This document shows positions 22,009 to 43,912 of a stretch of 64,000 nt of DNA, piece after piece. This DNA is from Escherichia coli (GTDB lineage: Bacteria; Pseudomonadota; Gammaproteobacteria; Enterobacterales; Enterobacteriaceae): the NCBI RefSeq assembly GCF_011045215.1, contig NZ_CP049202.1. One strand, given 5' to 3'. A program made the position numbers and the translations under genes. A model generated the notes under the pieces. It was not told the origin of the DNA. It was given only the letters and a program-made list of their open reading frames with translations, and did no database searches. The stretch's first letter is position 1. The number at the start of each line of letters is the position of its first letter.

Positions 22009-22520
22009 ACTTACATAAAAAGTCACTAGTAGGGGGGCAACAGGAACAGGATACTCAGAGTGAACAGTTATAACAAACAATTGATTCAATTTACTGTTCC
22101 AGTGCCCCCCAAATCCCAACTCCGCCGCTTGTTGCTGTCAGCATGTTAATGCTGGGGTTCTAAGCCGGAATCCCAGAAAATTCCGTCATTAAAGCTGACG
22201 GTCACTCAATCGGTCGTTTGTGTTTACGGACAAGCCACTTGGCCAAGTGTAAGTTAACCTACGCCACCCGATAACTCCAACATCTGCACATAGTACACCT
22301 TTGCCACTAGACTCGATTTATCCATCCCCAGCGTTTTATACACCTACGGCAACTTCTCTCTACACACAGACGCTTATCTTTTGCTTACCGTATGTTTTCG
22401 TGTGGTTGACTTTCAAACTCTAGGTTTAGTATTTTAATCTGTAACATATGTGCTCTACTTTTATTTCAATGAGTTTACAGGTGAGCAAGGAGCAAATTAA
22501 ATCACAGAAGGTCAAATGGA

Positions 22521-23084
22521 ATGAAATTTAGTAATGTTATAAAAATTGTAGTATTAGCTTTTTTTTCTCTTATTGTTTCTGGATGCACTATTATGCACAA
22601 TATAACATTATATGTAGAAGGGGTTGATACATACAAAAGTTCAGTTCAATCACTTTTATACAAAACAGATGATACTCCATACTATAACGGCCCAATTAAT
22701 TACTTTATTAAAGCGGACAGAAAAAAAAGATACATCACTTATATATATGATGTTGGAGCATTCATCGTAGGAATGCCGTCTTTTTACAAAGAAAACATCA
22801 ATCAAGATCTAAAGAAACTAGATATGTTTATTGACTGGGCCAGCCAACCGTATGGTATGAGAGTTAAAACAAAAGATAAAGTAGAATCACAATTACCAAA
22901 CAATAGTATAAAAGCAGCAAAAGGTATTACTGATTTTTCTTTATATATGTCGAAAAAAATAAACAATAATGAACCTTACTTAGTATATACACGTGATGTG
23001 GATTATTTTAATAAGGTCATGTTCTTGATTAATAAAAGAAACGCTGAAAAAATGAAAGGAGAGCTAACCCTATTCCTTAAGTAA
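22521..23084 (+). CDS. Hypothetical lipoprotein
   Basis: 187-aa ORF with lipobox-like LIVSGC; very AT-rich. Confidence 0.45.
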   Translation: MKFSNVIKIVVLAFFSLIVSGCTIMHNITLYVEGVDTYKSSVQSLLYKTDDTPYYNGPINYFIKADRKKRYITYIYDVGAFIVGMPSFYKENINQDLKKLDMFIDWASQPYGMRVKTKDKVESQLPNNSIKAAKGITDFSLYMSKKINNNEPYLVYTRDVDYFNKVMFLINKRNAEKMKGELTLFLK

Positions 23085-23602
23085 GCAATTAGGGGATTGA
23101 GCGATGCAAGAAGTAGTAGTCATTTTTGGGGCTCAGAAAATATAATGAATAAATATTATCTGCTTGAACGATAGAAATTTAAACCCTAAAAAGCTTAAAA
23201 AAGCACCATGAAACGGATGTTTATTCAACACTGCCTGCGTGCCATGAGTACGCCGCCGTTAATTAAATGGACTGCATTGATTGATACCAGGTATCAGTGA
23301 TGGTTTTTTGCTCTGTTTCCCTCAAAATGGACGTAATTTCCCCGATGCGGCTCTCAGCCGCACCACCGCATTCGTGCCAGCGTTTCGCCGGACTCAGGAA
23401 ACCGTAGTACCTCACCATCCGGAACCCCTTATCGGGGTCTGAAGTCCAATGGAACGAAAACGTACGTTAGTGAAGTAACTGTCTGATATATCAAAACATA
23501 ATGGACATAGAAAAACGGTAAGCGTAAACCGACCGCCGTATGTAGCCATTAGACAAGAATTGGTAACTTAGACGCCCATCTGACACAGACGGACATCTAA
23601 GT

Positions 23603-24022
23603 ATGGAATTACAGGACTGGCGAAAAGAACCTCGTAAAAAGTATTCGAATGAATTCAAACTTCGTATGGTTGAACTGGCATCACAACCCGGTGCTTGTGT
23701 GGCTCAGATTGCACGAGAAAATGGCGTCAATGATAATGTTATTTTCAAATGGCTCAGACTCTGGCAAAACGAAGGGCGTATATCACGGCGTCTTCCGGTG
23801 ACAACCACTTCTGACGCAGGCCTTGAATTATTACCTGTAGAGATAACGCCTGATGAGCCGAAAGAACCGATGGCTGCTCTTACTCCGCCCTTATCCACTC
23901 AGACTACTGTCAGTGCCAGCTCCTGCAAGGTGGAGTTCCGTCACGGTAACATGACACTGGAAAATCCTTCACCAGAGCTGCTCACTGTATTGATTCGTGA
24001 ACTGACCGGGAGGGGAAGATGA
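23603..24022 (+). CDS. IS66 Orf1 (TnpA)
   Basis: 139-aa ORF. Confidence 0.8.
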   Translation: MELQDWRKEPRKKYSNEFKLRMVELASQPGACVAQIARENGVNDNVIFKWLRLWQNEGRISRRLPVTTTSDAGLELLPVEITPDEPKEPMAALTPPLSTQTTVSASSCKVEFRHGNMTLENPSPELLTVLIRELTGRGR

Positions 24023-24369
24023 TCTCACTCCCATCCGGTACCCGTATCTGGCTCGTTGCCGGGATAACCGATATGCGTAAGTCTTTCAACGGGCTGGGTG
24101 AACAGGTACAGCATGTGTTAAATGTTAATCCCTTCTCCGGTCACCTGTTTATCTTCCGTGGCCGACGGGGTGACACCGTTAAAATTCTTTGGGCTGATGC
24201 TGATGGTCTGTGCCTGTTCACCAAACGCCTGGAGGAAGGCCAGTTTATCTGGCCTGCGGTACGTGACGGCAAGGTATCCATTACCCGTTCGCAACTGGCA
24301 ATGCTCCTCGATAAGCTGGACTGGCGTCAGCCAAAAACATCCCGCCTTAACTCACTGACAATGTTGTAA
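24019..24369 (+). CDS. IS66 Orf2 (TnpB)
   Basis: 116-aa ORF overlapping orf1. Confidence 0.85.
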   Translation: MISLPSGTRIWLVAGITDMRKSFNGLGEQVQHVLNVNPFSGHLFIFRGRRGDTVKILWADADGLCLFTKRLEEGQFIWPAVRDGKVSITRSQLAMLLDKLDWRQPKTSRLNSLTML

Positions 24370-24399
24370 AAAACTCCTGACCGCATTATAAAAACGGCC

Positions 24400-26082
24400 A
24401 TGAGTCAGAAATACCTCATTCGCATTGCAGAACTGGAAAGCCAGCTCCGCCAGAAAGACCAGCAACTGAGTCTGGTTGAAGAGACGGAGGCCTTCCTGCG
24501 CTCTGCACTGGCACGTGCCGAAGAAAAGATCGAAGAAGATGAACGGGAAATAGAACATCTGCGGGCTCAGATAGAAAAACTGCGCCGGATGCTGTTCGGT
24601 ACCCGTTCTGAAAAACTGCGTCGTGAAGTTGAACAGGCTGAGGCCCTGCTGAAACAACGCGAACAGGACAGCGATCGTTACAGTGGGCGGGAAGACGATC
24701 CACAGGTTCCCCGCCAGTTGCGACAGTCGCGCCATCGTCGTCCGTTACCGGCACACCTTCCCCGTGAAATACAGCGTCTGGAGTCTGAAGAAAGCTGTTG
24801 CCCGGAGTGTGGCGGTGAGCTGGATTATCTGGGGGAAGTCAGTGCAGAACAACTGGAACTGGTGAGCAGCGCCCTGAAAGTGATCCGCACAGAACGGGTA
24901 AAAAAAGCCTGTATAAAATGTGACTGCATCGTTGAAGCACCGGCGCCGTCCCGCCCGATAGAGCGTGGTATCGCGGGCCCCGGATTACTTGCCCGCGTGT
25001 TAACGGGAAAATACTGCGAACACCTGCCACTGTATCGTCAGAGTGAAATCTTTGCCCGACAGGGTGTCGAACTGAGCCGTGCATTACTCTCCAACTGGGT
25101 TGACGCGTGCTGCCAGTTAATGACACCGCTGAATGATGCCCTGTACCGTTATGTGATGAATACCCGCAAGCTTCACACTGACGACACACCGGTAAAGGTA
25201 CTGGCACCGGGCCTGAAAAAGACGAAAACAGGGCGCATCTGGACGTATGTCCGGGATGATCGCAATGCGGGTTCGTCATCTCCTCCGGCGGTCTGGTTCG
25301 CGTACTCACCGAACCGGCAGGGGAAACACCCGGAGCAACACCTCCGCCCCTTCCGGGGTATCCTGCAGGCGGATGCGTTCACAGGTTATGACAGGCTGTT
25401 CAGTGCAGAACGTGAAGGTGGTGCGCTGACAGAAGTTGCGTGCTGGGCCCATGCCCGGAGAAAAATCCACGATGTATACATCAGCAGCAAAAGTGCGACG
25501 GCAGAAGAAGCCCTGAAGCGAATCAGTGAACTGTACGCCATCGAGGATGAGATACGGGGATTACCAGAGTCAGAGCGTCTTGCAGTCAGACAGCAGCGAA
25601 GCAAAGCGTTACTGACGTCGCTGCATGAATGGATGGTGGAGAAGAATGGCACGCTGTCGAAAAAATCCAGACTGGGCGAAGCGTTCAGCTATGTACTGAA
25701 TCAGTGGGACGCCCTCTGTTATTACAGTGATGACGGACTGGCGGAGACGGACAATAACACAGCGGAAAGAGCGCTTCGTGCAGTCTGTCTTGGAAAGAAA
25801 AATTACGTGTTCTTCGGTAGCGATCACGGCGGCGAGCGTGGTGCACTGCTATACGGGCTGATCGGCACCTGCCGTCTGAACGGTATCGATCCGGAAGCGT
25901 ATCTGCGCCATATTCTGAGCGTACTGCCGGAATGGCCCTCCAACCGTGTTGACGAACTCCTTGCAAAATGGCATCTGAATCGATCGCAGTTTGGCATTCG
26001 AATCGATCATGATTTGGCATCCATCTCCGATCACAGTTTGGCATCACAATCGATCACGATTTGGCATACTTCCGATCATTGA
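24400..26082 (+). CDS. IS66 TnpC transposase, 3' end altered by IS21 insertion
   Basis: 560-aa ORF; the last ~35 codons read into IS21 terminal repeats. Confidence 0.75.
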   Translation: MSQKYLIRIAELESQLRQKDQQLSLVEETEAFLRSALARAEEKIEEDEREIEHLRAQIEKLRRMLFGTRSEKLRREVEQAEALLKQREQDSDRYSGREDDPQVPRQLRQSRHRRPLPAHLPREIQRLESEESCCPECGGELDYLGEVSAEQLELVSSALKVIRTERVKKACIKCDCIVEAPAPSRPIERGIAGPGLLARVLTGKYCEHLPLYRQSEIFARQGVELSRALLSNWVDACCQLMTPLNDALYRYVMNTRKLHTDDTPVKVLAPGLKKTKTGRIWTYVRDDRNAGSSSPPAVWFAYSPNRQGKHPEQHLRPFRGILQADAFTGYDRLFSAEREGGALTEVACWAHARRKIHDVYISSKSATAEEALKRISELYAIEDEIRGLPESERLAVRQQRSKALLTSLHEWMVEKNGTLSKKSRLGEAFSYVLNQWDALCYYSDDGLAETDNNTAERALRAVCLGKKNYVFFGSDHGGERGALLYGLIGTCRLNGIDPEAYLRHILSVLPEWPSNRVDELLAKWHLNRSQFGIRIDHDLASISDHSLASQSITIWHTSDH

Positions 26083-26162
26083 TTGGAATTCGCCAGTCAC
26101 TCCGGGAATTAACTCTTTTCACCACAGTCTCCATTGCCGTGTTTAAACCAGTGGAGACGTCA

Positions 26163-27728
26163 ATGTCCAAAAAGAGAAAATCCAGGAGCACTATGGAAAC
26201 TTGTTTTAAGATCCTTCAGCTCAAGTTCGATAAGAAGCTGACTAACCGTTGTATCGGACTGACGTTACACATCAGCGCCTCAACCGTTTTTGAGGTTCTT
26301 GCCCGCTTCAAAGCCTCTTCTCTGTCATGGCCATTACCTGCTGATATATCCCATGACACGCTGGAGAAACTCATTTTCCCGCCCAAAGACACCTCTGCGT
26401 CAGAGCTTGTTATGCCTGACATGCTGTACTTCGATACGGAAATGAGAAAACCTGGCGTGACGCGCCAACTGTTGTGGATGGAATACAAGGCACAGGCGGG
26501 TGACAAAGCGATGGGATACTCACACTTCTGCCGTTGCTACCGGAAGTGGAAAAAAACGCGACGCCTCTCCATGCGACAGGAGCATCGTGCTGGCGAAAAG
26601 CTCTTTATCGACTTCTGTGGTCCTACGGTCCCTGTTATTAATCCGGACACCGGAGAGATACGCCGCGTGGCAATCTTCGTGGCTGTAATGGGGGCGTCCA
26701 ACTATACCTATGTTGAAGCGTGCGAAGGTCAGGACATGATGTCATGGTTAAATGCCCACAGCCGTTGCCTGACCTTCCTGGGCGGCGTACCGAAGCTGCT
26801 CATCCCCGATAACCTCAGAAGCGCAGTGAAAAAAGCCGATCGCTATGAGCCTGTCATCAACGACAGTTATCAGGCGCTGGCTGAGCACTATGGCACGGTT
26901 ATTATCCCGGCCCGCCCGCGCAAACCTAAAGATAAACCAAAAGCAGAAAACGGCGTCCTCATCGTCGAGCGATGGCTTCTTGCCCGCATCCGTAATGAAA
27001 CCTTCCACACGCTCAGGGCGCTGAATGCACGCCTTCGGGAGTTGCTGACGGACATGAATAACCGACCAATGAAGGGATACGGTAATCAAACCCGCGCAGA
27101 ACGCTTCCGCATGCTGGATGCACCAGCACTCTCTCCGCTGCCTCTGGAGCCTTATGAATACACGGAATACAAAGCCGTGAAGGTTGGCCCTGACTACCAC
27201 GTTGAATATGCCCGTCACTGGTACTCCGTTCCACACGAACTGGTCGGTCAGCGTCTGTCACTGAAGGTGGGGCAGTCGGTGGTACAGCTCTGGCACAAGG
27301 GGCAGTGTGTGGCGCAACATCCGCGCAGCACACATGAATATAAACACACAACCAATCCGCTTCACATGCCAGAACGCCACCGGCGGCATGGGACATGGAC
27401 ACCGGAACGCCTTATCGAGCAGGGAAACCGTACAGGTCCGTCCACAGGCCGGGTGGTTGAATCCATGCTGAAAGCCAAACCCCATCCGGAGCTGGCTTAC
27501 CGTGCAGTCCTGGGTCTGCTGGCACTTCAGAAAAAATACGGCCCGGAACGGCTGGAAAAGGCCTGTTACGTTGCCCTGCACTATAACGCCCCGGACAGAC
27601 GCTTTATCGACAATCTGCTGCGTCATCATCGGGATAACGTTGAGCTTCCGTTATCCCGCCAGGGCGAACAACATCCGGCATATGCTTCAGAGCATGAAAA
27701 CCTGCGTGGTCCTGGCTACTACCACTGA
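26163..27728 (+). CDS. istA: IS21 IstA transposase
   Basis: About 521 aa from Met MSKKRK… within track ORF 26061..27728. Confidence 0.8.
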   Translation: MSKKRKSRSTMETCFKILQLKFDKKLTNRCIGLTLHISASTVFEVLARFKASSLSWPLPADISHDTLEKLIFPPKDTSASELVMPDMLYFDTEMRKPGVTRQLLWMEYKAQAGDKAMGYSHFCRCYRKWKKTRRLSMRQEHRAGEKLFIDFCGPTVPVINPDTGEIRRVAIFVAVMGASNYTYVEACEGQDMMSWLNAHSRCLTFLGGVPKLLIPDNLRSAVKKADRYEPVINDSYQALAEHYGTVIIPARPRKPKDKPKAENGVLIVERWLLARIRNETFHTLRALNARLRELLTDMNNRPMKGYGNQTRAERFRMLDAPALSPLPLEPYEYTEYKAVKVGPDYHVEYARHWYSVPHELVGQRLSLKVGQSVVQLWHKGQCVAQHPRSTHEYKHTTNPLHMPERHRRHGTWTPERLIEQGNRTGPSTGRVVESMLKAKPHPELAYRAVLGLLALQKKYGPERLEKACYVALHYNAPDRRFIDNLLRHHRDNVELPLSRQGEQHPAYASEHENLRGPGYYH

Positions 27729-27744
27729 CAGAAGGAACAACCGT

Positions 27745-28500
27745 ATGAGTGATAATCTGTTAAACAAACTGACCCAACTGAAACTCCCGGCGATGGCCGG
27801 GAGCCTGATACGGCAACGGGAAACGCCTCAGACTTACGACGAACTGTCGTTCGAGGAAAGGCTGACACTGCTGGTTGATGACGAGCTTCTGAGCAGAGAA
27901 AACAGTCGTGTGGCACGGTTGAGAAAAAATGCCTGCCTGAAATATCAGGCAACACCGGAAGGGCTGCGTTATCCGGCCTCAAGAGGTCTGCGGGCTGAAC
28001 AGATGAGGGAACTGCTGAACGGCCACTACATAATCCACAGGAAAAACCTACTGATAACCGGTCCGACAGGATGCGGTAAGAGCTGGATAGCCAATGCGCT
28101 GGGCGAACAGGCATGTCGACAGAAATACAGCGTCCGGTACTGTAGAACCGGGCGATTACTGGAACAGTTGGCTCAGGGACGTGTTGATGGCAGTTGGCTG
28201 AAATATCTGAAACAGTTGCAAAAAATACAGGTTCTAATCCTGGACGATCTGGGGCTGGAACAGTTAAGTAACGCCCAGTGTAATGACCTTCTGGAGATCA
28301 CAGAGGATCGTTACGGACAAAGCAGCACGATAGTGGTAAGCCAGTTCCCGGTAGATAAATGGCATGGTCTGATGGAGAACCCAACAACAGCAGATGCCAT
28401 CCTGGACAGACTGGTACATAACTCACACAGAGTGGTCCTTCAGGGAGAGTCCCTGAGGAAAAATCCCCCGACAGTGGAAAGCAGCGAAAAAACGAGTTAA
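27745..28500 (+). CDS. istB: IS21 IstB ATP-binding helper
   Basis: About 251 aa from Met MSDNLL… within track ORF 27502..28500; Walker A GPTGCGKS. Confidence 0.8.
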   Translation: MSDNLLNKLTQLKLPAMAGSLIRQRETPQTYDELSFEERLTLLVDDELLSRENSRVARLRKNACLKYQATPEGLRYPASRGLRAEQMRELLNGHYIIHRKNLLITGPTGCGKSWIANALGEQACRQKYSVRYCRTGRLLEQLAQGRVDGSWLKYLKQLQKIQVLILDDLGLEQLSNAQCNDLLEITEDRYGQSSTIVVSQFPVDKWHGLMENPTTADAILDRLVHNSHRVVLQGESLRKNPPTVESSEKTS

Positions 28501-28620
28501 AAAGCGGTAGAAAAAGTTAAGTTCCCGGTTGATCGAATGGATGCGAATCGCTGATCGAACTTCGATGCCAATCCGTGATCGAATAGAGCGGAATACGCAC
28601 TCCTGCCATGGAACGTGGTT

Positions 28621-28730
28621 CTCACCAATAAATAAGCGTCAATACGGTGCTCCGTTGACGCTTACGAACGTAGTACTCACCAATAAATAAGTGTCAATAC
28701 GGCGCTCCGTTAACGCTTACGAGTAATGGT
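28621..28730. repeat. Tandem direct repeat, 2 x 55 bp, each with a short palindromic core
   Basis: 28621-28675 and 28676-28730 differ at only a few positions; each contains GTCAATACGG…CCGTTGAC. Confidence 0.7.
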
Positions 28731-28789
28731 GTTGTCGAAGGTCATGTAAATCGCCTGAAGATGCTAAAACGCCAGATGTATGGTCGAGC

Positions 28790-29103
28790 GGATTTGAACT
28801 ACTCAGGCAGAGGGTCATGAGTCCACTGGCATGAAAATCTCAACCCAGGTTGCGGAAGAGCCGTTTTTCGGCTTTTGCGACATCCTGCGGCCACTGGCGC
28901 AGGGATTTAAACGGAATGTCGTAAAGTTCACAGTACTGTTCACGGGTAAGGCCGCTTGCGCGCCATGCGGCAACGTGATGTTTTTTCTGATCAAGCGTCC
29001 ATCGCATCCTGGGCATTGTTTACTCTCCACAGAAAGAAGTTATACGAATACCGGAATGCTAATGAACAGAATATTTCTGTGAAAGATGAGGTCCCCGGAA
29101 CAT
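28790..29103 (-). mobile_element. Inverted IS66 left-end fragment (terminal region plus 5' part of orf1)
   Basis: Reverse complement of 29040-29103 matches 17567-17640; ORF 28815..29030 repeats the IS66-A orf1 region. Confidence 0.65.
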
Positions 29104-29108
29104 TACGA

Positions 29109-29747
29109 TTAATTAACAGTCCAGGATTGACTGAAATTTTCTTCCTGAAACAGTTCCGTCAGCCCGCTAATCTGTTTCAGTCTCAGCACTTCATCCTGGT
29201 CCATCCCCAGCTCTGTACCAATGCGTTCATCCGTCCAGCCCAGACGTGACAGGTCTCTGACAATATCAGACATTGAGGTTATCTGGTGTTTCCCCCTGGC
29301 CCGGTTATGTCGAATGGTCGCAGCAATACGTGAGGCCTGCCCCCTTCTGTCCGGATTAATACAGGTCACTGGCAACCAGCCCTTCAGACGTTTTCCCGTA
29401 CCTGCTTCCCTGCCCAGTAATTGACGATGAAAACCATCCACGACCAGATAATGCTCCTTCTCTTCCGAGACAACCACAGGCTGCGTGAACCCATCCTGCT
29501 CCAGTGAATGTTTCAGCAGTTTTTTCTCACCCGGTGCCATGACATTGGGGTTATAATCATTGGCCACCACCTCATCCGCTTTCACCCACAGCACACAGTC
29601 CACAGGCTCCTGTGCAAAAGGACTGACCTCATGCAGCACCCTGCGCAGATGATTCAGAGCCTGTATGGTCTCTTCTTCTGCTCGCTCCTGGCTGAAGTAC
29701 TGACGAATCATGTTACCCAGTATCTCCGCTGTCACAGAATCCCCCAT
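29109..29747 (-). CDS. ibrB: ParB-like nuclease-domain protein, IbrB-like
   Basis: 212-aa ORF recognised as ParB/Srx-fold IbrB-like; overlaps upstream partner by 16 nt. Confidence 0.6.
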   Translation of the reverse strand: MGDSVTAEILGNMIRQYFSQERAEEETIQALNHLRRVLHEVSPFAQEPVDCVLWVKADEVVANDYNPNVMAPGEKKLLKHSLEQDGFTQPVVVSEEKEHYLVVDGFHRQLLGREAGTGKRLKGWLPVTCINPDRRGQASRIAATIRHNRARGKHQITSMSDIVRDLSRLGWTDERIGTELGMDQDEVLRLKQISGLTELFQEENFSQSWTVN

Positions 29748-30982
29748 TCCTTCCTCCTTTCTTTCATACGCTGCAGGTAACGTTCATAGTGCCGGGGTTT
29801 GTTCGGGCTGAAGGAGAGGGTCCGGCACCAGAAATCATTCTTTATGAGTGTCTTACAGATACGTCGCCAGGACGGAATATCCCGGCAGCCCAGGTCATTT
29901 TCCTGTTCATCCGGGATATCGTCCGGGAAGCCCCGCGTTTGATACCAGCGCAGGTAGACAGCAATTTTGTTACGGTAATGTTCTGCCGTTCTTTCCGGCA
30001 TCACATCCAGCAGGAACATCGCATAGCTGCGCCAGGTATGATGAGCCGGTTTTGATATACGTTTACGCAGGGCAAAATAGGCACCGCTTTCATTGGCATA
30101 ACGCGCCCCACTGGCAGCCCCTGACACCCGCTCACACATCCTGGCCCAGGTTTCCGGCTCCAGAACATGGTAAAGCCACAGCCCCTTACGTTGTTCCGGG
30201 CCAAAAGGCTCACAGACACGCATGTTACGTAACGGCACACCGGCACGGTACATCAGGTCATACAGGGGATTGTAGATGGCACGGGTTCTGGCGTTATATA
30301 TCCAGATATCACGGGCTTTCCAGTCATACAATGGATACATGGTGTAGTAAAACCCTTGAGGTGATGCCGTGGTCCAGGGTTTATCATCGGCATATCTGAG
30401 CTTACGCTGAGACACCAGTCCCATAAAGCGGTTGAGGGATTCATCCGCACGGACACCAGTCAGTATCGCCACACCGCACCGGTTACCGGCAAACCAGGAA
30501 GAAAATGCCGGAACAAATTCTTCAAAGGTCATGGCATACCGGTAGAAGGGAAAATACGCCATATCCGTAATGGCCTCTTCCGGTGGCTGACGGACCCAGG
30601 TCACACCAGGTTCCCAGCATATCCACTCCGGCTGAAACTGTGAGACACCGTTTACCGTGGTCAGGGGAAGTGCCACCCAGTAAAAGGTCTCCGTCACATC
30701 CCCGTACATATTCCGCATCTTCTGAATATGTTCAACGGTACACTGGTACTGGGCTTCCCAGTCAATGAACAGTACAGAGAATCGACGTTTTTTCCTGCGG
30801 GCCACATTTGCCACAAGATGGAACAGTACGGTGGAATCCTTTCCACCTGAAAAAGACAGACATACCGACGGAAATGTTTCAAAAACCCACTCAATGCGGG
30901 CAATTGCAGCACGCAGAACGTTATTACCTGTCAGGATTTTTGTGATGAAAGAGTCATTCACTTCTGCTTTTCTCATTAACAA
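29732..30982 (-). CDS. ibrA: PAPS-reductase/PP-loop ATP-pyrophosphatase family protein, IbrA-like
   Basis: 416-aa ORF with PP-loop motif SGGKDS near N-terminus; operon partner of ParB-like gene. Confidence 0.6.
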   Translation of the reverse strand: MLMRKAEVNDSFITKILTGNNVLRAAIARIEWVFETFPSVCLSFSGGKDSTVLFHLVANVARRKKRRFSVLFIDWEAQYQCTVEHIQKMRNMYGDVTETFYWVALPLTTVNGVSQFQPEWICWEPGVTWVRQPPEEAITDMAYFPFYRYAMTFEEFVPAFSSWFAGNRCGVAILTGVRADESLNRFMGLVSQRKLRYADDKPWTTASPQGFYYTMYPLYDWKARDIWIYNARTRAIYNPLYDLMYRAGVPLRNMRVCEPFGPEQRKGLWLYHVLEPETWARMCERVSGAASGARYANESGAYFALRKRISKPAHHTWRSYAMFLLDVMPERTAEHYRNKIAVYLRWYQTRGFPDDIPDEQENDLGCRDIPSWRRICKTLIKNDFWCRTLSFSPNKPRHYERYLQRMKERRKEWGIL

Positions 30983-40384: not shown

Positions 40385-43300
40385 TTACCATTGATAACCA
40401 ACCCCCACAGAAGCACCAAAGTCATTCTGGGTATTCCCGCCAGCATGTAATTTCGTTATCCAGTGTCCATTTTGTGATATATGAGAAACACCTACAGCAA
40501 TTGCCGATTCGCCACCATAGGTACCTGCAGATACTCCGACCAGACTTGAATCGGGCTGATAGGCCTGTGGAATTCCTGATAAAGCCATCGATGTTGCGAT
40601 ACCTGCAGTCAGTTTTGTTTTCATATCCCCCATCTTTTTATCAAGAGAATCCACCTTTCTGTCGGTATACTGTTTTAAACTGGAGAAACTTTCATTAAGC
40701 TGTCCTACAGTTACAGCATCAGATCGGTTAACTCCCGGAGCAACATTGGTTATTCTTCGCTGATTCAGTGAAGAGCCAACTGACACTGTGTTATCCTCAC
40801 TTGCTACAGAATTACTCCCGAGGGCCACGCTATTTTTTGATGAAACAGTACTTTTGTTCCCAATACCAATGCTGTTTTCTCCGGTTACATTCACATCAGC
40901 ACCAACTGCAATGGCATTATCTTTTTCTGCTCTGGCGTTACCTCCTAAAGCGATTGCATTTTTACCGGTGGCTTTAGGTTTCATTGTTTTTTCTGAGTTT
41001 ACTGCCAACATTGATGCATCTCCTATACTGCCTGAAACCTCTTTTAACTGGCTGACAGTCACTACATCATTATCATTGACCCCTTCTTTCACCCCTGTTA
41101 TTTGTCGATTACCATCAGTACCACTGACGGTTATTTTCTCGCCGCCACTATTTTTTGCTATTGTCACCTCAGAAAGATTTGAGGATTGCTGAACCAGACC
41201 GACTTTTCCGTCTTCAATGTCTTTTATTCCTGAACTTAACTTATTTATTTCAGTTGTATTCTGGGCAACTTTTTGATTCGTTTCATATAACTGTTTACCA
41301 TTTACAGCATCAGTACTGGTTGCACTGACTGCTCCATCGGCAATCCCTGTTAGAACCCTTTCACCATCCGTCCCGCGAAAATCGACCAGTGCTCCTCCAC
41401 TTCCGGAACCAACAGATATTACTTTGTTGTTTGCATTCTGTTGTACCAAACCACTTTGTCCAGCCTGAAGAGAGTTAATCTTTGATATATTTTCAGTTAA
41501 CGTATTGTCAACAGCAATAAACGCATCCCCCACGTTATATTTACTCTGTCCCTGAATGATATAAACAGGATTTCTGAACTGACTAATATTATCGAATGAA
41601 GCCCCACCACCAAGAGCTGTAGCCACTGAACTCAGGACGGTATTTGTCTGATAAAGCTGACTGCCGGTCACGGCTTCGCTGCTGTCCGCTGCTAGAGTAC
41701 CATCCCGAACGCCGGTCAGGGTACGGACACCGTCCGTACCGGTCAGATCCACTGATGTTCCCCCACTGGCTGCTGCAACGCTGACCACCCGGGATGTCGG
41801 ATCCTGACGTACCAGCCCCACGGAGCCACTGCTGATATTATTCACGTCATTCTGCAGTGTGGTTATATTGCCGGTGTTCGCGGTGACCGAGGTATCCAGT
41901 GCCGTCAGGGCATCCCCCACAGTTGAGCGGCCACTGCCCTGAATCTGATAAGTTGGTGCAGTGAAGGAGCCATCCGTTGCGATGGCGGCCCCGCCACCAA
42001 GACTCTGTGTCAGGCCGGACAGCTGTCCCGTATGCTGTGTCAGTGTCTGCCCCTGGGTTGTGAGGGTTCCGGTGTTGGTGGCGATCGCTGCAGTGTTGGT
42101 GGTCACATTCTGGTTGGTGGTAAAAAGCTGACTGCCGGTCACGGCTTCGCTGCTGTCCGCTGCTAGAGTACCATCCCGGACGCCGGTCAGGGTACGGACA
42201 CCGTCCGTACCGGTCAGATCCACTGATGTTCCCCCACTGGCTGCTGCAACGCTGACCACCCGGGATGTCGGATCCTGACGTACCAGCCCCACGGAGCCAC
42301 TGCTGATATTATTCACGTCATTCTGCAGTGTGGTTATATTGCCGGTGTTCGCGGTGACCGAGGTATCCAGTGCCGTCAGGGCATCCCCCACAGTTGAGCG
42401 GCCACTGCCCTGAATCTGATAAGTTGGTGCAGTGAAGGAGCCATCCGTTGCGATGGCGGCCCCGCCACCAAGACTCTGTGTCAGGCCGGACAGCTGTCCC
42501 GTATGCTGTGTCAGTGTCTGCCCCTGGGTTGTGAGGGTTCCGGTGTTGGTGGCGATCGCTGCAGTGTTGGTGGTCACATTCTGGTTGGTGGTAAAAAGCT
42601 GACTGCCGGTCACGGCTTCGCTGCTGTCCGCTGCTAGAGTACCATCCCGGACGCCGGTCAGGGTACGGACACCGTCCGTACCGGTCAGATCCACTGATGT
42701 TCCCCCACTGGCTGCTGCAACGCTGACCACCCGGGATGTCGGATCCTGACGTACCAGCCCCACGGAGCCACTGCTGATATTATTCACGTCATTCTGCAGT
42801 GTGGTTATATTGCCGGTGTTCGCGGTGACCGAGGTATCCAGTGCCGTCAGGGCATCCCCCACAGTTGAGCGGTCACTGCCCTGAATCTGATAAGTTGGTG
42901 CAGTGAAGGAGCCATCCGTTGCGATGGCGGCCCCGCCCCCCAAAGAGTCGGCAATATTATTAATGTTATTACCGGATTGTGTTAGTGCACTGTTCGTTGC
43001 AAAAAGCTGGCTGCCGTTAACAGCGTCAGTACTGATTCCGGATATTCGTCCGGCTGCAACATTTTGCAGCTGACGTTCTTTCCCTGTATCACCAATACTC
43101 AGGGCTGCTACCGGACTGGTACCTGCGTAGGTATATTCCTTATTATTTATGATACCGGATGTTGTTGCAGTCACAGCGGCTGTTTTTGCCTCACTCCCTA
43201 AAGCCACATCGCCATCATTTGATGAAGATGCTCCCATTCCAATGGCCACACTATTATCGCCCCCGGCATTTGAAACAGACCCCAGAGAAATACTGGAATC

Positions 43301-43912
43301 ACCCGCAGCTTCAGCACCGACCCCAATGGCCAGACTGGTCGTCCCGGATGCCAGAGCTGAAACACCAAAAGCCTGAGCTGCAGCACCTGTTGCAGTGGCG
43401 TTACTGCCGAATGCAGTGGAATAGTTTCCTGTGGTATATGCGCCACAACCCGACGCCCATGAATACACACCAAACGCCTCGGGCACAGCATTTGTCACCC
43501 CACCCGTTAACGGCCCTTGATAACCGATGTTATTGGTTGTTGTACCATTACCACTCCAGTTAACTACCGTGGATGAAGTTCCATATGGGTGCATGCCACT
43601 GAATTCAGTATCATTAATAAAACGCTGGTACTGTTCAAATGCCGTTATGGCTCCTGTTGTCACATCAGTTACAGTTCTGCGTCCAATGACATTGTCTGCC
43701 CCACAATAGTCATCATCACCTGCTAAAGTAATCGCCCCATGACTAACATTGGGGTATCCCTGACTGGCAGCAGTAGATGAATAATTTGAAGAACTGAGTA
43801 AGGTTAAGTTAGATGCAGAAACGGAGTATATATATACATATGAAATTAAAAGAACAATAAATTGTACTATAGTTCTACTTTTCATAAGAATTCCTACTAA
43901 AGGTAAAATCAT
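40385..43912 (-). CDS. Trimeric autotransporter adhesin (YadA/Hia-type) with repetitive stalk
   Basis: 1175-aa ORF: signal peptide, head repeats (SVAIG/NSVALG-type), three tandem ~157-aa stalk repeats, C-terminal YadA-like anchor ending …GVGYQW. Confidence 0.9.
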   Translation of the reverse strand: MILPLVGILMKSRTIVQFIVLLISYVYIYSVSASNLTLLSSSNYSSTAASQGYPNVSHGAITLAGDDDYCGADNVIGRRTVTDVTTGAITAFEQYQRFINDTEFSGMHPYGTSSTVVNWSGNGTTTNNIGYQGPLTGGVTNAVPEAFGVYSWASGCGAYTTGNYSTAFGSNATATGAAAQAFGVSALASGTTSLAIGVGAEAAGDSSISLGSVSNAGGDNSVAIGMGASSSNDGDVALGSEAKTAAVTATTSGIINNKEYTYAGTSPVAALSIGDTGKERQLQNVAAGRISGISTDAVNGSQLFATNSALTQSGNNINNIADSLGGGAAIATDGSFTAPTYQIQGSDRSTVGDALTALDTSVTANTGNITTLQNDVNNISSGSVGLVRQDPTSRVVSVAAASGGTSVDLTGTDGVRTLTGVRDGTLAADSSEAVTGSQLFTTNQNVTTNTAAIATNTGTLTTQGQTLTQHTGQLSGLTQSLGGGAAIATDGSFTAPTYQIQGSGRSTVGDALTALDTSVTANTGNITTLQNDVNNISSGSVGLVRQDPTSRVVSVAAASGGTSVDLTGTDGVRTLTGVRDGTLAADSSEAVTGSQLFTTNQNVTTNTAAIATNTGTLTTQGQTLTQHTGQLSGLTQSLGGGAAIATDGSFTAPTYQIQGSGRSTVGDALTALDTSVTANTGNITTLQNDVNNISSGSVGLVRQDPTSRVVSVAAASGGTSVDLTGTDGVRTLTGVRDGTLAADSSEAVTGSQLYQTNTVLSSVATALGGGASFDNISQFRNPVYIIQGQSKYNVGDAFIAVDNTLTENISKINSLQAGQSGLVQQNANNKVISVGSGSGGALVDFRGTDGERVLTGIADGAVSATSTDAVNGKQLYETNQKVAQNTTEINKLSSGIKDIEDGKVGLVQQSSNLSEVTIAKNSGGEKITVSGTDGNRQITGVKEGVNDNDVVTVSQLKEVSGSIGDASMLAVNSEKTMKPKATGKNAIALGGNARAEKDNAIAVGADVNVTGENSIGIGNKSTVSSKNSVALGSNSVASEDNTVSVGSSLNQRRITNVAPGVNRSDAVTVGQLNESFSSLKQYTDRKVDSLDKKMGDMKTKLTAGIATSMALSGIPQAYQPDSSLVGVSAGTYGGESAIAVGVSHISQNGHWITKLHAGGNTQNDFGASVGVGYQW
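41657..43070. repeat. Three near-identical tandem repeats of ~471 bp inside the TAA gene
   Basis: Same sequence (…CTGACTGCCGGTCACGGCTTCGCTGCTGTCCGCTGCTAGAGTACCATCCCG…) restarts at ~41657, ~42128 and ~42600. Confidence 0.85.

Follow-up and report, generated by a model that had tools for sequence, protein, structure and literature searches.

Nested insertion-sequence remnants probably form the IS-rich edge of the ibrAB module on an IncF-type Escherichia plasmid

The region analysed here, positions 23518 to 29106 of a 64,000-nt stretch of Escherichia coli DNA (contig NZ_CP049202.1, assembly GCF_011045215.1; the whole stretch is hereafter the window), contains five mobile-element pieces lying end to end beside the genes ibrA and ibrB. 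With good confidence we read this region as a nested stack of insertion sequence (IS) remnants that forms the IS-rich edge of the ibrAB module on an IncF-type Escherichia plasmid and that has no function of its own. As part of the same reading, the apparent “2 x 55 bp tandem repeat” within it represents the right termini of two related IS66 elements, side by side. From left to right, the stack comprises an IS66-family element (B) with the IS21-family element ISSso4 inside it, a stump of a different IS66 element (X), the right end of an ISEc38-like ISL3 element, and an inverted left-end fragment (A′) of a type-A IS66 element (Table 1). This reading corrects the annotation of the plasmid region, giving five IS elements or remnants with exact ends.

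Two IS66 right ends in place of a tandem duplication

A 55-bp unit occurs twice head to tail at 28611-28720, as detected by Tandem Repeats Finder (TRF; period 55, 2.0 copies, 91% matches, score 189). Exact comparison found the two copies identical at 50 of 55 positions, and no match of this kind is expected by chance. A first-pass annotation of the window had already noticed the two copies, although placed 10 bp too far to the right (28621-28730), and had interpreted them as a tandem duplication with a palindromic core. Each unit corresponds to the final 25 nt of the transposase gene tnpC (eight codons and the stop) followed by the right inverted repeat of the element; in copy 1, the tnpC part encodes NVVLTNK and stops at 28633-28635, ahead of the right inverted repeat of B. 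The palindromic core is strong in copy 1, where the terminal TTGACGCTTA pairs with the upstream TAAGCGTCAA (-14.8 kcal/mol, z = -5.8, DNA folding), and degraded in copy 2 (-4.8 kcal/mol, z = -0.7), which by inspection has one wobble pair and one mismatch and no compensatory changes relative to copy 1. This palindrome is the usual subterminal hairpin of that IS66 right end.

The ends of B were set by alignment to an intact relative (L011:601-3105, E. coli H20 MIN6, NZ_CP069692) that is 99.4% identical to B, measures 2505 bp, and agrees with it in its inverted repeats and in the layout of tnpA, tnpB and tnpC. B starts at 23518 with GTAAGCGTAAAC, where the first-pass annotation had also begun an IS66-family element. 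Its left inverted repeat is GTAAGCGTAAACCGACCGCCGTATG and its right inverted repeat ends ...CCGTTGACGCTTAC, with GTAAGCG-type terminal repeats on the left (GTAAGCGTAAACCGACCGCCGTAT, at 23518) and, as the reverse complement, on the right (GTAAGCGTCAACGGAGCACCGTAT, ending at 28665). The element is 5148 bp long as found and 2505 bp after removal of ISSso4 and one copy of its target duplication; restored in this way, B equals its intact relatives in length and terminus, and its right end therefore lies at 28665. Family membership follows from three consecutive genes, all above their NCBIfam cut-offs, of which tnpC, for a DDE-type transposase, is open once ISSso4 is taken out. As found, the tnpC frame runs into ISSso4 as far as 26082 (a 560-aa fusion), the gene being split 10 codons before its stop with the rest of its 3′ end at 28605-28635. 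Joining 24400-25961 to 28605-28635 restores an open 530-aa TnpC that ends ...NRVDELLPWNVVLTNK and then the stop, and tnpC measures 1593 nt in the relatives of B as well. Elements of this 2505-bp type were present in more than 3400 E. coli records, where the label assigned by the NCBI Prokaryotic Genome Annotation Pipeline (PGAP) is only “IS66 family”.

Intact relatives also show what the 55-bp unit normally is. The L011 copy carries it once, at its end, within an 8-bp target duplication (TGGACAAC), and a second intact relative, in L001, likewise has a single unit and the duplication CATCAGGC. What the first-pass annotation had itself named as the alternative to its duplication, a normal single-copy IS terminal feature, is thus essentially what these alignments return. 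An 8-bp target duplication is reportedly typical of the IS66 family, including IS679 and IS66. None accompanies B, whose flanks read GAAAAACG and GAACGTAG; as the duplication is missing here and present in L011 and L001, one flank of B must have been replaced, a matter of its history and not of its family. In the window copy, unlike the L011 type, ISSso4 interrupts the element, no target duplication flanks it, and a second right end comes after it.

This second right end, copy 2, begins exactly at the end of B and itself ends in an IS66 terminus. It is identical to X-type solo tails in three related plasmids, hereafter C5-type plasmids (L007, L009 and L010: E. coli C5 plasmid A, NZ_CP010123; pCeylon31IncF, NZ_CP076271; pRHB18-C12_2, CP057674), and at sequence type 69 (ST69)-type E. 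coli chromosomal loci, and all five of its differences from copy 1 reproduce the variant present elsewhere. Together with its junction to the ISL3 remnant (28666-28853), copy 2 recurs as one piece, at 98.9% identity, in three finished plasmids that have no B at this place; the X stump in L007, L009 and L010 measures 59 bp (CATG + 55). Since copy 2 and its right-hand junction occur elsewhere independently of B, and since the variant is shared, copy 2 belongs to a separate element X and is no duplication of copy 1. The unit appears twice because the right end of B abuts a 55-bp stump of another IS66 element.

As a separate observation, the X-type tail variant (AAGTGTCAATACGGCGCTCCGTTAACGCTTAC) was encountered only as a solo stump of 55-60 bp (L007, L009, L010, L012, L014-L019 and window 28666-28720), and never on a full-length element in the fetched loci.

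ISSso4, the ISL3 remnant and the ibrB boundary

The presence of an IS21 element in the 3′ end of tnpC, as proposed in the first-pass annotation, is supported by the IstA and IstB matches and by 99.9-100% identity, over 2638 bp, to copies of ISSso4 on Shigella sonnei plasmids (BLAST of window 25962-28602 against PLSDB). Its ends were fixed from three independent insertions (the window, L003 and L002). Assignment to the IS21 family rests on an open istA followed by an open istB, on TG...CA termini, on subterminal motifs (reiterated TTTGGCAT/CGATC motifs at the left end, in a 23/47-bp periodic array at 25969-26092), and on a short target duplication, CTCCT, at 25957-25961 and 28600-28604; target duplications in this family measure 4-8 bp. 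ISSso4 is probably still active.

Two sets of apparent matches were rejected. In enterotoxigenic E. coli (ETEC) chromosomes (L003), ISSso4 lies directly in ISEc38, at another breakpoint and with the duplication TATATG, and the event is not shared with the window; E. albertii and cattle plasmids that had appeared as near-full matches (H34, H42, H43) contain only ISSso4 and unrelated ISL3 copies.

The ISL3 remnant to the right of the X stump retains ~33 codons from the end of the transposase gene, in which 1 bp is deleted, together with the right inverted repeat. PGAP-annotated ISEc38 tails that are 96.0% identical to it over 149 nt occur in many genomes (L003 and L008 were compared directly), and similarity to the transposase 3′ end together with the terminal repeat GGCTCTTCCGCAAC places the remnant in the ISL3 family. 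A complete ISL3 element with both ends and a duplication was not found here; with 142 bp left, this is a remnant rather than a functional member, and it appears to have been cut by the insertion of X. This piece had been missed by the first-pass annotation, which had assigned its bases 28790-28862 to IS66.

The inverted IS66 left-end fragment described in that annotation does exist, but it spans 28863-29106 and not 28790-29103, and it is not of the same IS66 kind as B, as had been supposed, but 97% identical to the left end of element A in the same window. The left inverted repeat GTAATGTTCCGGGGACC is preserved in it, as are ~51 codons from the start of tnpA, and the fragment seems to have been cut by the ISL3 insertion. 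BLAST matches to A′ stop at 29106/29107, and its terminus at 29106 lies 2 bp, rather than 6 bp, from the ibrB stop (29109-29111). The A′/ibrB junction is common to L006, L007, L009 and L010, at 98.6-99.8% identity and across E. fergusonii and E. coli IncF plasmids, in agreement with the earlier suggestion that an IS66 end marks the edge of the ibrAB segment, and A′ is truncated at other points in related plasmids. Among the boundaries of the ibrAB module, this junction alone is old and shared, and everything to the left of it is lineage-specific IS turnover.

The exact ISL3|A′ junction of the window was not found elsewhere. Candidates H63-65 and H111 (“214-508”) were rejected, an A-type IS66 having inserted there into the ISL3 end. 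Mouse E. coli matches (H166-168) were likewise set aside; in these, ISEc38 is inserted upstream of an IS66 tail and the order is different.

Table 1 Features of the IS-rich region, of the adjoining ibrAB genes and of the neighbouring IS66-family elements
Feature	Coordinates	Strand	Description
IS66-family element C	16519..17567	-	internally deleted; right repeat GTAAGCGGCTCGCC, 3′ two-thirds of tnpC, ~90 bp left-end leader
IS66-family element A	17568..20339	+	full-length, 2772 bp; reference for inverted fragment A′
IS66-family element B	23518..28665	+	interrupted by ISSso4; ends from alignment to intact relative L011:601-3105
tnpA of IS66-B	23603..24022	+	139 aa; NCBIfam NF047595 IS66_ISRel24_TnpA, 81.9 bits (cut-off 74)
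tnpB of IS66-B	24019..24369	+	116 aa; NCBIfam NF033819 IS66_TnpB, 119.4 bits (cut-off 50)
tnpC of IS66-B	24400..25961	+	codons 1-520 and first two bases of 521; NF033517 transpos_IS66, 446.6 bits (cut-off 180)
ISSso4 (IS21 family)	25962..28599	+	2638 bp; ends TGCAAAATGG...GGAATACGCA, from comparison of three independent insertions
istA	26193-27728		511 aa, open; NF033546, 287.1 bits (cut-off 160)
istB	27745-28500		251 aa, open; NF038214, 250.8 bits (cut-off 200)
55-bp unit, copy 1	28611..28665	+	last 55 bp of IS66-B; single-copy at end of intact relatives
55-bp unit, copy 2	28666..28720	+	right-end stump of different IS66 element X; ends ...CCGTTAACGCTTAC
ISL3 remnant	28721..28862	+	right end of ISEc38-like ISL3 element, 142 bp; ends ...GTTGCGGAAGAGCC
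A′	28863..29106	-	inverted left-end fragment of type-A IS66, 244 bp; 97% identical to 17568-17810
ibrB	29109..29747	-	IbrB-like / ParB N-terminal domain protein, 212 aa; 99.8% identity to L007 (PGAP there: IbrB-like domain-containing protein)
ibrA	29732-30982		follows ibrB; product with PAPS_reduct and DUF3440 domains

A proposed order of events and the alternatives to it

The order in which the stack may have arisen can be proposed from which element cuts which. Briefly, a type-A IS66 element (now A′) would have landed 2 bp downstream of the ibrB stop, an ISEc38-like ISL3 element would have entered its tnpA, and the IS66-family element X would then have inserted 142 bp short of the ISL3 right end, in the 3′ end of the transposase gene. 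X would subsequently have been cut down to its terminal stump. In the window, the right end of B would have been joined 55 bp from the X terminus, either because B inserted at the target GAACGTAG and the left product was later lost, or because an IS-mediated adjacent deletion stopped at the B/X junction; in C5-type plasmids, X would have been reduced by the end of element C at -59 (against B at -55 here). Finally, ISSso4 would have entered tnpC of B and created the 5-bp duplication CTCCT. Because no other event has kept an intact duplication, this insertion is probably the latest. The nesting bears out the general view of the first-pass annotation that successive transposition and recombination events are recorded here.

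Several observations weigh against this account. Elements A, B and C all lack a target duplication in the window, and no duplication, direct or reverse-complement, pairs any ends of A, B, C or B+X; with their flanks mismatched, at least one later exchange or deletion must be assumed for each element. The B|X junction was found nowhere else in E. coli complete genomes, PLSDB, GTDB representative genomes or JGI metagenomes, a full-length X-type element was absent from all fetched loci, and the DNA to the left of B (20340-23517) was absent from PLSDB apart from ccdAB; no relative displays the state before or after the arrival of B. Neither IS66 target choice nor ibrAB in connection with IS66 yielded usable literature.

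A different account of how B met X, which we consider unlikely, is that IS66-family transposases prefer to join their ends to one site in this IS66 subgroup, 55-60 bp in from the right end. The preferred site would lie around CCATGGAACG, just upstream of the terminal hairpin, in which a pseudo-left-end motif (TAAGCGTCAA) faces the true terminus, and abutting or tandem IS66 ends would be a recurrent product, with the resident element lost. Such a hot spot is suggested by four junctions, each with a different partner, whose positions lie no more than 6 bp apart: in the window B joins by its right end at -55, in L007, L009 and L010 C joins by its left end at -59, and two partners join at -60, namely ISEc8 by its left end in the ST69-type chromosomal locus and ISEc22 by its right end in CFT073 (and in 74 further genomes). 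At all four the rest of the resident element is gone and no target duplication is present; the left end of A, too, meets C near an end, only 20 bp from the C terminus. However, a pattern that covered only 0-12 bp upstream of GAACGT supplied two of the four cases, which introduces ascertainment bias (when metagenome contigs were scanned for an IS66 terminus no more than 12 bp away from where the 55-bp unit starts, ten contigs of two kinds were returned). Among 61 tails from viral contigs, an unbiased set, 9 were truncated, at 7 distinct breakpoints, none of them at -55 to -60 and none with an IS66 terminus. Moreover, B would simply have landed in a 59-bp stump should the C|X junction be ancestral, and one event could underlie both the C and the ISEc8 cases, whose X tails are identical. 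End-directed targeting is known for some other IS families, e.g. IS30, and to our knowledge has not been described for IS66; if true, recurrent end joining would bear on target choice in a family with poorly characterised transposition.

Of the two chromosomal junctions, the CFT073-type locus, found in 75 complete E. coli genomes, consists of ISEc22 (L022:1751-4204, 2454 bp) followed directly by a 60-bp B-type tail without target duplication, and at the ST69-type locus the left end of ISEc8::IS100 abuts a 60-bp X-type tail in inverted orientation. We also considered whether the tail and ISEc8 had moved as one unit in ST69; this is unsupported, with no empty site in 5426 E. coli genomes and with one flank derived from hsdR and the other from a gene for an outer-membrane protein. 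Separately, in L083 (381-394 and 4856-4866), where the X tail and ISEc8::IS100 lie between hsdR′ and a truncated outer-membrane protein gene, both flanks were seen to carry ATATTTATCG directly beside the element.

One might also suppose that slippage or unequal exchange truly duplicated the right end of B in place, the second copy diverging later. This would account for units that lie exactly head to tail with period 55, but we consider it very improbable. A second copy derived from the first should have no counterpart elsewhere, and this is not what was found, the five differences of copy 2 being those of a variant known from other loci and copy 2 occurring with its right-hand junction, without B, in three plasmids in which the stump is 4 bp longer. 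Derivation of those plasmids by precise loss of B is excluded by the same 59-bp stump. Furthermore, the boundary between the repeats falls exactly at an IS terminus, and the 9% divergence between the copies is far above the <1% separating B from its closest relatives. An assembly artefact at repeated IS sequence has next to no probability, even though IS-dense regions are prone to misassembly and the B|X junction is unique to the window, given that the right end of B matches intact relatives, that the X/ISL3 junction recurs in three finished plasmids, and that five differences between the copies leave no assembler collapse or expansion.

Neighbouring elements and comparison with known loci

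Two further IS66-family elements lie to the left of the stack. Element A has the repeats GTAATGTTCC... on the left and ...CCGGAATATTAC on the right (starts read GTAATGTTCC / GTAATATTCC), and is flanked by GACCAGAC and ACTTGTTT, without target duplication. Element C lacks its terminal 20 bp in the window, where they are replaced by the abutting left end of A; in L007 (1221-2291) and related plasmids it keeps both inverted repeats and only the 3′ two-thirds of tnpC, and its intact left inverted repeat (GTAAGCGCCTCATCTGAGCC) abuts the X stump in three related plasmids. The 20-nt terminus of C was not found in GTDB representatives. Between the right end of A and the left end of B, 3.2 kb (20340-23517) contain ccdA/ccdB (21362-22008), the only PLSDB match of the segment, at no more than 92.6% identity and on Pectobacterium and Klebsiella plasmids, and two open reading frames (20350-20928 and 22521-23084) without a Pfam match. 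The segment looks like foreign DNA captured between two IS66 elements, and was probably brought in by IS66-mediated recombination.

Other repeats were observed elsewhere in the window. Further IS66-family tnpC-like sequence, 89-92% identical to parts of A and C, is present at 63908-64000 and 16911-17030 / 62452-62571, and the part at the right window edge points to one or more additional IS66 copies. Two genes for YadA-family trimeric autotransporter adhesins, 13859-16043 (+) and 40385-43912 (-), are inverted relative to each other and share stretches of 87-98% identity; the first is split into two open reading frames, and three near-perfect tandem repeats of 471 bp (41653-42894) lie within the second (1175 aa). 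An array with an 11-bp period at 57845-57939, built of alternating units AATTACCCCCG and AATTGATAGCG, may represent iterons or another binding-site array.

Among known replicons, the C5-type plasmids share with the window the YadA-adhesin side flank with C, the junction of X stump and ISL3 tail, the A′/ibrB junction, and an ibrAB that is 99.7-99.8% identical. They differ in lacking both IS66-B::ISSso4 and the ccdAB segment, in an X stump of 59 bp that abuts the intact left end of C, in an ISL3 right repeat that is trimmed by 9 bp and joined to a 5′-truncated element A, and in an A′ cut at 28951/28957 instead of 28863. At nucleotide level, L007:2460-2500 reads as the ISL3 repeat minus its last 9 nt, fused at a shared GTTGC to the tnpA of IS66-A in direct orientation, against an intact ISL3 repeat abutting A′ in inverted orientation at 28840-28880 of the window. 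A deletion across a large inverted repeat that arose once A had inserted into A′ would explain this difference.

ISSso4 is like the PGAP-annotated copies on pSS-type plasmids of S. sonnei in its intact istA/istB, TG...CA ends, reiterated terminal motifs and short duplication, and differs from them by nothing except its insertion site in an IS66 tnpC; its duplication is 5 bp here and 6 bp at the L003 insertion. Relative to ISEc38, the ISL3 remnant carries the same right inverted repeat, but only the last 142 bp persist, with a 1-bp deletion, the rest having been displaced by X. The chromosomes of CFT073 (NC_004431, L022) and of ST69 (NZ_CP102488, L083) have, as in the window, an IS66 terminus abutting a solo tail of the B/X subgroup without duplication, with other partner elements, a tail of 60 instead of 55 bp, other contexts and, in ST69, inverted orientation. 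All elements of the stack belong to known families, and IncF plasmids commonly carry nested IS elements as well as solo IS ends; the region is an ordinary mosaic, unique in its arrangement to this replicon among the collections searched, yet of a familiar kind.

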